From NCBI GenBank assembly GCA_045863235.1, contig BTUM01000013.1, positions 59,817 through 123,816 of the forward strand: 64,000 nucleotides of DNA, in the 5' to 3' direction. Source of the stretch: Candidatus Xenobia bacterium (lineage in GTDB: Bacteria; Vulcanimicrobiota; Xenobia; Xenobiales; QWHO01). Below, piece by piece: positions 1,781 to 6,356 of the stretch (positions within the stretch are counted from its first letter, which is position 1; every line of letters starts with the position of its first letter). The position numbers and the translations under genes were made by a program. The notes under the pieces were generated by a model that was not told the DNA's origin, ran no database searches, and saw only the letters and a list, made by a program, of their open reading frames with translations.

Positions 1781-2932
1781 TCAGACCCCAGTATAGCGGG
1801 CCCGCGGTCTGATCATCCAGCCCTGGCGGTACTGCTCCATGGCGTGAGCCAGCCAGCCCGCTGTGCGACCGAGTGCAAACAGAGTCAGAGGAGCTCCTGA
1901 GGGCAGAGACATGGACCGGGCCAGGCTGACCAACGCGAAGTCGAGCGAGGGGGGCCGCAGGTGCAGGCTCTCGGCAGCCTGGAGCAGCTCGCGCCCCAGG
2001 GCGCAGGCCGTCACCTTATCGAGCAGATGGCGCGCCCGGGGGTCTCCCTCGGGGTAGAGGGGGTGGCCGAAACCTGGGATGGGCTCGCCCCGTCGCAAAC
2101 GGTCTTCCAGGGTGGGGCGGGCGCCGCGGTGGCTGGCCTCCTCGAAGAGTGCCGCCACGCGACGGGTGTGCCCCCCGTGACGACCACCCTCCAGGGCTGC
2201 CAGGGCCGCGCCCACGACCGCGTAGGGACTGGCTTCGGCTGAGGCCACGCAACGGGCCGTGAAGGCGGAGGTGTTCAGCTCGTGGTCGGCGCACAAGATC
2301 AGGGTGGCCTCCAGGGCTCGCTCCGCGGCCGGGTTCCCGGGGGTCCACGCCGAGGCCAGGGAGCGAGCCAGCGGGCGCCCGGCTCGGTGCGAGTCGGTGA
2401 GACAGCGTCCGAGCAGGGTCAGGATGCGAGAGCCCGTGCGGCGAACGGAGTCCGGCTGGAGATCGCGGGCGGCCGGATCGGTGGAGCCGGCCGCCACCAG
2501 GACCAGCCGGAAGGCTTCAGTCGGCTCCAACCTGCTCGCCAGCTTGAAAGCCTCCTGCCAGGGGCCCGGGGGAGGGAGGCCAGGTCGGTGCTGACCTTCC
2601 CAGAGGAGCTCCACCACTTGCTCGAAGCACGTTCGCGAGGCCAGCTCGGTGGCCAGCTGACCGCGGTAATAGAGCTGGCCGTCTTGAATGCAGGTCAGCG
2701 CCGATTCCAGCACGGGGCTCCCCCATTGCAGGGCTTCAGCGGCCGCCTGCTCGGGATGGCGGCGATGGCGACGGCGGCTGGCCAGCCGTTCGACCTCCTC
2801 CTCTCGATACAGGCAGCGTCGTGTGCCCGGCTGGCCTTCGGAGCCGAGCAGGCCGCGACTGACGTAGCTATAAAGGGTGGCCGGGCTGACACCCAGCCGC
2901 CGGCAGGCTTCTTCGGCGGTGAGGTAACTCAT
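1781..2932 (-). CDS. HTH (MerR/excisionase-type)-citrate synthase fusion
   Basis: YLTAEEACRRLGVSPATLYSYVSRG HTH followed by ADHELNTSAFTAR, HGG and PGFGHPLY citrate-synthase motifs; start placed at ATG 2932. Confidence 0.9.
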   Translation of the reverse strand: MSYLTAEEACRRLGVSPATLYSYVSRGLLGSEGQPGTRRCLYREEEVERLASRRRHRRHPEQAAAEALQWGSPVLESALTCIQDGQLYYRGQLATELASRTCFEQVVELLWEGQHRPGLPPPGPWQEAFKLASRLEPTEAFRLVLVAAGSTDPAARDLQPDSVRRTGSRILTLLGRCLTDSHRAGRPLARSLASAWTPGNPAAERALEATLILCADHELNTSAFTARCVASAEASPYAVVGAALAALEGGRHGGHTRRVAALFEEASHRGARPTLEDRLRRGEPIPGFGHPLYPEGDPRARHLLDKVTACALGRELLQAAESLHLRPPSLDFALVSLARSMSLPSGAPLTLFALGRTAGWLAHAMEQYRQGWMIRPRARYTGV

Positions 2933-2981
2933 GTTGATTGCTTGATCAAGATTGACGAACCAGATCAATCTATACCATGAT
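2933..2981. promoter_or_regulatory. Divergent promoter/operator region of the citrate-synthase pair
   Basis: TTGACG(2952)-18 nt-CATGAT(2976); inverted repeats AGATTGA-N9-TCAATCT (2949-2971) and TTGAT-N6-ATCAA (2934-2949). Confidence 0.6.
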
Positions 2982-3012
2982 GGGCGCGAGTGGAGCAAGG
3001 AGGAAGCATCGG

Positions 3013-4056
3013 ATGACAACCGGTTTGGAAGGCGTAGAGGTGACCCAGACTCACCTCAGTCGGGTGGACGGGATCAAGGGGGAGCTCGTGCTGCGGGGCC
3101 GACGACTGGAGGAGTTGGCCGGCAAAGTCAGCTATGAGAGCGTATGCGGGCTCTTGTGGGAGGAAGAGGAGGTCGAGCTGGGCAGAGCCCGGGCTCTGGC
3201 CTACGCCCAGTTCGAGAGCTGGTTCGAGCGAACCGACGGGCTGACCTATCCCGGAGCCCTGCGCCTGTTGCTCACCATCTTGCGTCCTGAGAGCGAGGTG
3301 AAGCCTCACCATCTCGCCGCCGGGGCGGTGGCCGTTGGCCTGGCCAACGTGATCCGGCGCCGTCGAGGATTGGCACCGGTGGCCCCGCGGGCCGAAGTGG
3401 GTCAGGCTCAGAGCCTGCTCGAGATGCTGGAAGCTGGCCCTGTCGAAGAGTCGCGCTGGAAAGCGCTGGAGGCCTATCTGGTCACCGTGGCCGAGCACGG
3501 GCTCAACCCGTCCACCTTTACCGCGCGAGTGATCGCCTCCACCGGGGCCGAGCTCTTTCCTACCCTGGTGGGCGCGCTCTCCGCTTTAGAAGGGCCCCTT
3601 CACGGCGGAGCTCCAGGCCCGGTGTTGGACATGCTGGATGCCTGCCAGGCCGATCCGCGGGGCTGGATCCGCGAGCAGCTGGCCCGCGGTCAGCGCTTGA
3701 TGGGCTTTGGGCATCGAGTCTACCGGGTGCGCGATCCCCGCGCCGAAGTGCTGAAGCGAGCGGTGCTGACGCTGGCTCAGAGCCCACGCCTGGCGCAGGC
3801 CGAGACGGTCGAGCGGGTGGCTCTGGAAGAGCTGGCCCGGCACAAGCCGGATCGGCGCCTGGAGACCAACGTCGAGTTTTACACCGCCGTTCTGCTCGAG
3901 GCCGTCGGGCTACCGCGAGAGGCGTTCACGGGCGTGTTCGCGACCGGACGGGTGGCCGGCTGGTCGGCCCATTTCTATGAGCAGAAGCACGGGGGCCGCC
4001 TGCTGCGCCCGGTCGCCCGCTACGTAGGTCCAGAGCCGGCGAACGGAGAAGGCTGA
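3013..4056 (+). CDS. Citrate synthase / methylcitrate synthase family
   Basis: GLEGV, EHGLNPSTFTAR, GPLHGGA, MGFGHRVY, DPR and TNVEFY motifs. Confidence 0.92.
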   Translation: MTTGLEGVEVTQTHLSRVDGIKGELVLRGRRLEELAGKVSYESVCGLLWEEEEVELGRARALAYAQFESWFERTDGLTYPGALRLLLTILRPESEVKPHHLAAGAVAVGLANVIRRRRGLAPVAPRAEVGQAQSLLEMLEAGPVEESRWKALEAYLVTVAEHGLNPSTFTARVIASTGAELFPTLVGALSALEGPLHGGAPGPVLDMLDACQADPRGWIREQLARGQRLMGFGHRVYRVRDPRAEVLKRAVLTLAQSPRLAQAETVERVALEELARHKPDRRLETNVEFYTAVLLEAVGLPREAFTGVFATGRVAGWSAHFYEQKHGGRLLRPVARYVGPEPANGEG

Positions 4057-4059
4057 TGG

Positions 4060-4596
4060 ATGAGAAAGACCACCTTCTTCCTGCTCAGCGCGGCCATCTG
4101 CGTGCTGGGCGCCCTGGCTCAAACCTCGGGCCTTGCACCGGGAGACTTTGCGCCTGCCTACGATCCCACCCACGTGGCGGGGCCTGACAAGGGCACAACC
4201 ACCTGCCCGGTTTGAAAGTACGGCCCCAGACCTGCGGTGCAGGTCTATCTTCAAAATGAGACCCCGGCCAATACCGTGGCCATCGCCAGGGTGCTCGACG
4301 AGGCCGTCAAACAGCACCAGAAAGCCGAGTTCAAGGCTTTCATCCTGTTCAAGCCGGGTGATCCGGCTGAGGCCACCCTGGTCAAGCTGAACGCCCCTGG
4401 CGTGGGGGTGGCCACCTTGCAGGGTGAGGCCATTGAGGCGCTCAAGCTGTACAAAGTCAGCTCCGACCCCAAGGTGAAGAACACCGTGATCTTGTATCGC
4501 AAGCGAAAGGCCGCCGAGACCTTTGTCAATCTCGACTGCACTCGGGAGGCGGGCCGAAAGACCCTGCTCGATGCGATCGCTCGTCTGAGCAAGTAG
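4060..4596 (+). CDS. Predicted exported selenoprotein with CxxU (CPVU) motif, thioredoxin-like; in-frame TGA at 4213-4215
   Basis: ATG 4060 gives a signal peptide (MRKTTFFLLSAAICVLGALA), then …GPDKGTTTCPV-TGA-KYGPRPAVQVYL, in frame with ORF 4237-4596; hairpin downstream of the TGA. Confidence 0.8.
4228..4246 (+). promoter_or_regulatory. Candidate bacterial SECIS element
   Basis: AGACCTGC-GGT-GCAGGTCT, a perfect 8-bp stem with a G-containing loop, starting 12 nt after the UGA. Confidence 0.7.
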
Positions 4597-4655
4597 CGTC
4601 AACGGTTGAAAAGGGTTCCTGGAGAAGGGGGCGGAATATCGCCTCCATCCTTCTC

Positions 4656-5261
4656 ATGGACATCGCAGCAACAATCGCTGAAGCTCGCGGCGCTCTCGCC
4701 GAGGGTCGAGCCAAGGACGCCCTGGGTCTTCTGTCCGACGTACTCCGTGAAGACGTGGCTTGCGAGCCGGCCCACGACCTTGTCTTCGACATTCTTTCCG
4801 AGCCGAGTCAGAATCTCGAGCTGGTTGAGTTCTATCGCGACCTTCTCAAAGTTCACGTCGAAGATACCGAGCTGACCATCCGCCTGTCGCGGGCTTACGC
4901 TCAGGGCAACAAGGATTCGCTGGCCGTCCTTCAGCTGCAGAAGATCCTGAAGAAGGAAGCCAATCCCAAGGCTTTTGCCGAGTTGGCCCGCACGTACGGG
5001 CGGATGAACAAGATCCGGATGGCCCTGGAAGCGATCAACAGCGCCATCGCCGCTGACCCCTCCTATGGCGCGGCTCATCGCGAGCGTGTGCGCCTGCTCA
5101 CAGCTTCGGGCGAGAAGGATGAGGCGGCCGTGCATGCCGTCGACTCGCTTTGTTGTGCCGAGCTCGACCCCGACACCCGGGCCTGGCTGGAGGTGGCCGA
5201 CGCCTTTTTAGAGGCCGGCCACAATCCCCCCGATGGCTTTCTGCACAACGGCAAGGCCTGA
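4656..5261 (+). CDS. TPR-repeat protein
   Basis: Helical repeats such as AFAELARTY…ALEAINSAIAADPSYGAAH. Confidence 0.75.
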   Translation: MDIAATIAEARGALAEGRAKDALGLLSDVLREDVACEPAHDLVFDILSEPSQNLELVEFYRDLLKVHVEDTELTIRLSRAYAQGNKDSLAVLQLQKILKKEANPKAFAELARTYGRMNKIRMALEAINSAIAADPSYGAAHRERVRLLTASGEKDEAAVHAVDSLCCAELDPDTRAWLEVADAFLEAGHNPPDGFLHNGKA

Positions 5262-5304: not shown

Positions 5305-5883
5305 ATGACACTGACTTCTCTACCGAGCCTTTCGGCCGGACCGGCCGCCCAGAAGAGTCGCCCCCCTCGAACCGCTCTTCAAAAGCATGTTGATTTCTTT
5401 GACCGCAATGGCGACGGTCAAATTCGCGTTTGGGAGACCTACCAGGGTTGCCGGGCGCTGGGGATGGGGCGGCTGCTCTCGACTGGCGCAGCCGTGGCCA
5501 TCAACCTGGCCCTGGGCATCAAGAGCGGGTCGCCCTGGTATAAGCTGCTCACGATTCAGACGGATGGAATTCACCAGGGAAAGCACGGGGGAGACACGGG
5601 CATCTATGACGCCGACGGCAACTTTGTGCAAGCCAGGTTCGACGCGATGTTCGCCCAGCACGACAGCAACTCCGACGACGCGCTCAGTGAGGCCGAGGTC
5701 GAGCAGATGCTGGTCGTGAATGGAGGCGGCCAGCCCAGCCTGGGCTCCAAGGCGGAGTTTGGCCTGCTGATGAAGCTGGCCGGGGAGGACACGCCCGACG
5801 GGCGGGTGCTCACGCGCCAGCGCCTGGAAGCTTTCTACGACGGCTCACTCTTTTACCAGCTGGCCGGGGAGAAGGTCCCCTGA
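5305..5883 (+). CDS. Caleosin/peroxygenase family protein
   Basis: TALQKHVDFFDRNGDGQI (His plus EF-hand), ETYQG, IHQGKHGGDTGIYD and YDGSLF are caleosin hallmarks. Confidence 0.85.
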   Translation: MTLTSLPSLSAGPAAQKSRPPRTALQKHVDFFDRNGDGQIRVWETYQGCRALGMGRLLSTGAAVAINLALGIKSGSPWYKLLTIQTDGIHQGKHGGDTGIYDADGNFVQARFDAMFAQHDSNSDDALSEAEVEQMLVVNGGGQPSLGSKAEFGLLMKLAGEDTPDGRVLTRQRLEAFYDGSLFYQLAGEKVP

Positions 5884-5912
5884 GACTCGAGATTCTCCCC
5901 ACCCTGATCATC

Positions 5913-6356
5913 GTGGCAGCGGTCGTGTTGACGGCCGTCCTCGGGGCCCTGGCCACCAACCCGCAAAGTGCCTGGTATCTCGAGCTGGTCAAGCCTTCCT
6001 GGCAACCGCCCGGGTGGCTCTTCGGGCCGGTCTGGACGCTCCTTTACGCGCTCATCGCCACCAGTGCGGTCATCGTCTGGCATGCGACCGAGGGAAACGC
6101 TCGCCGCGAGCTGATGCTGCTCTTTGCCGTCAACCTCATGCTCAACCTGGCCTGGAGCGCGCTCTTCTTCCGGGCTCAGTCGCCGCTGGGAGGCGGGGTG
6201 GAGATCATCCTGCTGCTGGGGTCTATTGCCCACCTTGGCTGGCGTTGCTCCAGCCTCAGCCCGGTTGCGGCCTGGCTGCTAGCCCCCTATTTCGCCTGGG
6301 TAGCCTTCGCTACCATCTTGAACTGGACGATCGCCATCTTGAACTGGGAGAAATGA
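5913..6356 (+). CDS. tspO: TspO/MBR tryptophan-rich sensory protein (may start at CTG 5880)
   Basis: WYLELVKPSWQPPGWLFGPVWTLLY, LNLAWS and LLAPYFAWVAFATILN. Confidence 0.92.
   Translation: MAAVVLTAVLGALATNPQSAWYLELVKPSWQPPGWLFGPVWTLLYALIATSAVIVWHATEGNARRELMLLFAVNLMLNLAWSALFFRAQSPLGGGVEIILLLGSIAHLGWRCSSLSPVAAWLLAPYFAWVAFATILNWTIAILNWEK

Follow-up and report, generated by a model that had tools for sequence, protein, structure and literature searches.

It is known that the redox site of thioredoxin-fold enzymes normally has a fixed place, following strand 1 at the beginning of helix 1, and that the redoxin proline preceding strand 3 is a cis-proline. In the catalogued thioredoxin-fold selenoprotein families, selenocysteine (Sec) presumably occupies this canonical site. 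The redoxins of the TlpA/ResA/DsbE group (3gl3, 2f9s, 8t4c; NF002854; PF08534) carry a WCxxC motif at the start of helix 1, and the BCP/PrxQ peroxiredoxins (3drn, 5enu; PF00578) a PxxxTxxC motif together with a conserved Arg. A 2026 catalogue of 119 selenoprotein families (PMC13188914, Table 1) includes Prx TxxU, Trx UxxC, Prx-like UxxC/UxxU, Redoxin UxxC, UGC-TlpA, SELENOW-like CxxU, Trx7/PDZ CxxU (NF041199) and Prx-SUH CxxU (NF045827); the same table has no CxxU entry under PF00578 or PF08534 and no entry matching the family described below.

The DNA analyzed here, referred to as the window, is a stretch of 64,000 nucleotides from a Candidatus Xenobia bacterium (contig BTUM01000013.1, positions 59,817 to 123,816 of the forward strand). 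As the initial annotation had reported, an ORF begins 3 nt past a citrate synthase gene: the citrate synthase stop is TGA 4054–4056, followed by TGG and then by ATG 4060. The frame reads T-C-P-V-TGA-K-Y-G with TGA as codon 52 (4213–4215) and stays open to TAG 4594–4596, which bears out the proposed 178-aa reading. The following features were assigned.

2977..4056, + strand: upstream citrate synthase of the PRK12350 subfamily (library match and neighbour comparison)
4045..4052, + strand: purine-rich GGAGAAGG in the 3′-terminal part of the citrate synthase gene, a likely ribosome-binding site judging by its letters
4060..4596, + strand: selenoprotein ORF of 178 aa with TGA as Sec (sequence; homology on both sides of the TGA)
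4060..4119, + strand: predicted cleavable signal peptide, residues 1–20 (basic start, hydrophobic core, A-L-A end)
4204..4215, + strand: C49-P-V-U52 motif with the TGA at 4213–4215 (family alignment; helix 50–54 in the model)
4228..4246, + strand: SECIS hairpin of 8 bp with a GGU loop that begins 20 nt past the UGA
4237..4596, + strand: 119-aa downstream piece, the gene callers' version in close relatives (ORF list; database entries P0002 and P0003)
4258..4272, + strand: residues E67–N71, the canonical thioredoxin/peroxiredoxin active-site position, without Cys (profile alignment to redoxins)

The signal peptide was called from pattern and hydropathy only (hydropathy 2.82 for residues 1–20; pLDDT 63–64 there), and a similar hydrophobic start was found in 99 of 108 aligned members. 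The expected truncation by standard gene callers is seen in the databases, where the closest proteins are 119-aa pieces beginning past the TGA (one at 93%, another, from a record labelled bacterium CPR1, at 85%). A sequencing error at codon 52, which the initial annotation had named as a possible objection, was not borne out: public contigs of runs X1, X5 and X9, from three studies (X1 possibly being the source sample), cover 4213–4215 and read TGA only. These positions lie outside the coverage of the run X11 contigs. Runs labelled RNA that cover the gene were rejected as evidence of expression, since these are contigs whose libraries include very long records as well. Around the gene, the window holds two divergent citrate-synthase-like genes (1781–3019 on the − strand and 2977–4056 on the + strand), one with an N-terminal HTH_17 domain. 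An inverted repeat of −22.3 kcal/mol and no T run (4617–4660) lies between the selenoprotein stop and the start of a TPR gene (4656), downstream of which a caleosin-like EF-hand gene (5305–6356, + strand) is followed by TspO.

The AlphaFold2 model of the window protein has a pLDDT of 93.6, with 97–98 across residues 41–60. Its best structural match is the DsbE-like 3gl3 (Z 17.6, rmsd 2.2, 138 aligned) and its best Foldseek match is 3drn (E 2.9e-7), and the fold is predicted to be TlpA/ResA/peroxiredoxin-like. The model places helix 50–54, which holds the CxxU, before strand 59–64 and helix 69–85, and the model of the Cys homolog P0005 has the same element order. Profile alignment to 25 redoxin domains (126 columns; probability 85.9) set CPVC against "VKLSDQ" and the redoxin TxxC/CxxC against E67–N71, where no Cys column was found in 108 members. 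According to alignment and model, CxxU falls on the short helix that precedes strand 1 near the N-terminus, not on the thioredoxin active site. The thioredoxin-type fold suggested in the initial annotation holds up in the predicted model, but the CxxU is not the thioredoxin active-site motif: it lies in an N-terminal extension, and the canonical site is without Cys. The register is confirmed by a bridging subfamily (L219–L225), since it joins both profiles in the same register (98.6% to the window family and 98.7% to redoxins); its members read FGNIGNPFW where the canonical site would be and have CY[LVI]U on the N-terminal helix. The topology of the model puts the two sites at opposite ends of strand 1. 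Among 22 Sec members, two passed the Pfam AhpC-TSA and Redoxin cut-offs, both from the bridging subfamily (L222 and L225). Two scanned bridging members also showed weak similarity to deiodinase-related and ResA models.

Compared with TlpA/ResA/DsbE, the model shares the N-terminal hairpin extension (Z 16–17.6), and pattern and hydropathy predict export for it too. The window protein differs in having no WCxxC at the start of helix 1, its sole conserved pair being in the short N-terminal helix and containing Sec, and in having K140-N141-T142 before strand 3, where the bridging subfamily keeps A-L-P. Identity is 10–15%. Bridging members reach E 1e-16 to 1e-18 with the ResA model, below its cut-off, and the window protein has no match to Pfam Redoxin or AhpC-TSA. 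Because the canonical CxxC is absent, it is placed outside the TlpA/ResA redoxins: it has the predicted shape of one and probably works like one, without being a member. The BCP/PrxQ peroxiredoxins are alike in fold by Foldseek and profile alignment, but their PxxxTxxC motif and conserved Arg align with E67–N71 and N141 of the window protein, and the peroxidatic site is therefore considered absent. With the catalogued thioredoxin-fold selenoproteins it shares an in-frame UGA, a coding-region SECIS, Cys homologs and a redox-type motif, and it scored over no cut-off of the NCBIfam selenoprotein models (release 20.0).

Two other assignments were rejected. Bacteroidota proteins named "intradiol ring-cleavage dioxygenase" carry the window-family domain with CPVC fused to Dioxygenase_C, and it is because of such fusions that some stand-alone homologs bear the name "protocatechuate 3,4-dioxygenase"; Dioxygenase_C is present only in the fusions and absent from the window protein, and the name was not adopted. 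Heme attachment in c-type cytochromes uses CxxCH or an invariant CxxCK, and it was discarded here, the residue after the motif being Lys in 58%, Thr in 26% and Glu in 5%.

From sequence and model, we hold with moderate confidence that this probably exported selenoprotein is a thiol/selenol oxidoreductase in which Cys49-x-x-Sec52 would replace the lost canonical site. This role is favoured because Cys/Sec pairs usually mark catalytic redox Cys (PMC2673044). SelB would bind the hairpin and Sec would be inserted at the UGA, after which the protein would be exported, probably to the periplasm, by its cleavable signal peptide. Cys49, placed at the helix start as in thioredoxin, and Sec52 could then alternate between the reduced state and a selenenylsulfide, and a canonical thioredoxin that receives electrons from a DsbD-type carrier might re-reduce the pair. 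Oxidised thiols of envelope proteins or peroxides would be the likely substrate class. Genomic context lends this role modest support: a thioredoxin gene follows the family gene in five Armatimonadota loci (a Cys-form subclade, not G000, the genome of the window), and thioredoxin is fused to the family domain in P0033; the other fusion partners are YceI, dioxygenase-like and beta-propeller domains. G000 has Omp85 and a DsbD-type membrane domain, and DsbB was not found in it. The 147 neighbouring ORFs scanned, which include some fusion parts and wrong-frame calls, contained five thioredoxins, two AhpC/TSA, three YceI and one SOD, most of the others being unrelated, and no conserved operon was found across the examined loci. 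Citrate synthase was rejected as a functional clue, as it is a neighbour only in the window's genus among these loci, and it is probably not a functional partner.

The conserved residues also bear on the main rival role, that of a metal binder or chaperone (for Cu, Zn, Hg or Fe) acting like SCO or Sao binding proteins, in which Cys49, Sec52 and His38 (replaced by Asp in distant members) would make up the site. Position 38 is His in 89% and Asp in 6% of members, and SCO proteins are among the fold matches (6n5u, Z 12.9; 4bpy, Z 12.6). CPVC resembles metal-knuckle motifs, a likeness counted for metal binding, and Cys49 and Sec52 align with residues that are presumably core-packed in redoxins, a position that would also suit a pair that is buried or holds a metal. 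Some Cys members carry a fused intradiol-dioxygenase-like domain, and bioRxiv 10.1101/2022.07.06.499078 describes exported selenoproteins with an apparently metal-binding Sec. However, the conserved set consists of two Cys/Sec and one His/Asp only, several Sec members have other residues in place of the His/Asp, and no recurring metal-resistance neighbourhood was seen. Taken together, we regard a metal-binding role as unlikely and retain the oxidoreductase as the preferred reading.

As anticipated in the initial annotation, homologs carry Cys or TGA at codon 52: among 161 distinct family domains read from DNA at all fetched loci, this column was Cys in 100, TGA in 58 and another residue in three, which are without CxxC. 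The Sec column takes TGA and never TAA or TAG, and stops elsewhere in the family domains amounted to one in 23,642 codons. The database search gave 163 aligned homologs; both Cys columns are covered in 144, and Cys stands at column 52 in all but two of them (142). Of the 19 fragments, 18 begin past the motif and one ends at C-P-V; judging from these sequences, the fragment ends fit, as expected, genes cut at a TGA. C49 was conserved in 108 of 108 and C52 in 106 of 108 aligned members, and they are the only strongly conserved Cys.

Of 251 genomes from its own phylum, 14 gave a match to the window protein, 11 of them with TGA, and the family profile matched 92 of 251 Armatimonadota and 26 of 251 Planctomycetota genomes sampled. 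TGA copies occur in the window's phylum, Armatimonadota, Ca. Fervidibacter and Planctomycetota. Cys-form and Sec-form paralogs stand in tandem at one locus (L210; G273:C46:4289-5604) and two Sec forms in tandem at another (L228 in G404), and both forms are present at separate loci in G271, G276 and G295. The titles of L034 (94%, Burkholderiales) and L040 (Methyloversatilis) clash with the closest relatives of the genes, which suggests mislabelled bins.

The family is widespread and apparently unnamed. Searched to E 1, Pfam and NCBIfam (release 20.0) gave no match for the window protein, and the 108 aligned members have no NCBIfam family in common. The family profile found nothing better than E 0.07 in a PDB sequence search, and the 30 nearest ESM Atlas matches of a Cys homolog had no common Pfam family, the three shown being "hypothetical protein". 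No match was seen among the new families in section 7 of PMC12013277, and literature searches on Eremiobacter selenoproteins, Fervidibacter selenocysteine and bacterial intradiol-dioxygenase selenoproteins found none. No title or abstract start retrieved by the literature search describes the window family; BSepDB, PMC4807772 table S9 and Haft and Tolstoy 2025 might contain members.

A first tree of 69 rows allowed one Sec origin with two changes. The wider tree, a quick, unrooted LG+G4 analysis with long branches (99 rows from 154 thinned at 70% identity), needs 10 Cys/Sec changes, at least four of them forced on starred branches, and a tree with all Sec forms in one clade was rejected (p-AU 4e-6). 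Because the tree is unrooted, no direction of Cys/Sec change is claimed.

The hairpin noted in the initial annotation as 8 bp starting 12 nt after the UGA was recovered at 4228–4246, where AGACCTGC and GCAGGTCT form eight Watson-Crick pairs around a 3-nt GGT loop. The folding z of the 63-nt hairpin region is −2.6, with 4 of 200 shuffles equally good, and a perfect stem of at least 8 bp with a G-loop at the same spacing followed 55 of 10,268 TGAs sampled from the genome as a control (0.5%). The chance of obtaining the stem by synonymous coding of the same peptide is about 5e-4 under a rough codon usage, because codons seldom used for Arg (AGA, 2.7%) and Pro (CCT, 13%) occur in the stem. The bSECIS consensus, as given in PMC13188914, has a loop of 3–9 nt, a stem of 4–16 bp, G in the first two loop positions, 16–37 nt from the UGA and an energy of at most −7.5 kcal/mol; the window hairpin has a 3-nt GGU loop, an 8-bp stem, a distance of 20 nt and −11.7 kcal/mol, all within this consensus. 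The suggested likeness to the E. coli fdhF SECIS is partial: the 9-mer TGCAGGTCT is common to the two and both have a GGU-type loop, but the register differs, as the 9-mer spans the apical loop in fdhF and lies mostly in the 3′ arm here.

All 11 genomes of the window's order retain a six-pair stem core, with one compensatory G-C to C-G change, a weak covariation that 43 of 500 shuffles equalled. The Fervidibacter group has a different hairpin of about 14 bp, longer and bulged, and planctomycetes have yet other hairpins downstream of the TGA. A strict perfect-stem filter, which passed 10 of 29 TGA and 3 of 63 Cys copies, was replaced by a folding z test because it misses the longer bulged Fervidibacter-group hairpins. 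Over the 46 nt past the codon, the median z was −2.76 for TGA copies (39 of 56 at or below −2) and 0.05 for Cys copies (7 of 102), in a comparison that treats related, non-independent copies as separate. A control window showed no comparable difference (−0.27 versus −0.14). The 17–19 nt hairpin found over the peptide RPAVQV in five distant Armatimonadota/planctomycete Sec copies (L195, L210, L211, L212 and L151) is identical or nearly identical to that of the window. In six Sec-form genes of family f3 (L024–L027, L029 and L030), codon 60 in the SECIS loop is TGC or TGT, giving Cys where Val stands elsewhere; here, the RNA may constrain the protein.

The tree and the hairpins weigh on a third explanation: the domain would be a non-catalytic binding or adaptor module, similar to YtfJ and other envelope proteins of thioredoxin fold that lack Cys, and its C-x-x-U bond would serve as a structural link or a redox switch. 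In its favour, the canonical catalytic residues are gone and the fusion partners are varied (YceI, dioxygenase-like, beta-propeller). YtfJ, an exported thioredoxin-fold protein, has a further resemblance: the nearest named ESM Atlas clusters of a Cys homolog are YtfJ_HI0045 (PF09695; 0.86) and redoxin, at 0.85–0.86, below 0.9 and with no Pfam match, which makes this a lead only. Yet the Sec/Cys switches forced on starred branches, the rejected single Sec clade and SECIS hairpins that differ between lineages would together be a high cost for a purely structural bond, and we consider this explanation improbable.

Returning to the oxidoreductase, a broader proposal, to which we give about even chances, is that the window protein would serve as type member for a large family of exported selenoenzymes not yet described. 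In this family, a TlpA/peroxiredoxin scaffold would have lost its classical site and built a new catalytic Cys-x-x-Sec centre at the opposite end of strand 1, in the N-terminal helix. Such an active-site migration would have been accompanied by repeated Cys/Sec switching and lineage-specific SECIS hairpins, with an intermediate subfamily surviving. If true, a widespread family would be added to the bacterial selenoproteome and many truncated gene calls would be corrected, and a Sec-bearing pair off the canonical site would offer a clear example, open to testing, of an active site that has moved. With the tandem Cys/Sec paralogs of L210, the contribution of selenium in the cell envelope could be studied on a naturally matched pair, and as Cys versions can be expressed without recoding, the mechanism is testable now.

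Sec machinery elsewhere in the genome had been predicted from the locus, and selA, selB and selD over cut-off and a tRNA-Sec (anticodon UCA) were found in G000 (97.6% complete), all on contig C23; the selD gene also contains an in-frame TGA, with a hairpin behind it. Of 2944 long ORFs in G000, 1883 end in TGA, more than in any other stop, so the codon is not globally reassigned. Each of the 54 TGA-bearing genomes examined carries selA or tRNA-Sec (52 with each, 50 with both), and 9 of 13 planctomycete genomes with Cys copies only show neither. Many Sec-competent genomes keep the Cys form: selA scored above its cut-off in 25 of the 34 genomes selected for a Cys copy, four of which also carry a TGA paralog, and this was counted against a strict link between the TGA form and Sec machinery. 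The UGA is aligned to a conserved Cys, a bSECIS-type hairpin follows it, and selA, selB, selC and selD are in the genome; on all testable sequence criteria, the window protein is a bacterial selenoprotein, and the TGA at codon 52 is very likely read as Sec. That this TGA is instead a true stop in a split gene or pseudogene, an assembly error or a Trp codon is barely credible: gene callers do give the 119-aa downstream ORF and two database entries (P0056 and P0244) have Trp at the Sec column, possibly a TGA called as Trp by the gene caller, but TGA occupies one Cys column in 58 domains of several phyla, contigs of three studies agree on it, and Trp decoding was rejected with TGA as the main stop of G000 and tRNA-Sec as its only UCA tRNA. 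G000 also carries another redoxin-domain gene with an in-frame TGA (L119; G000:C14:16886-17146).
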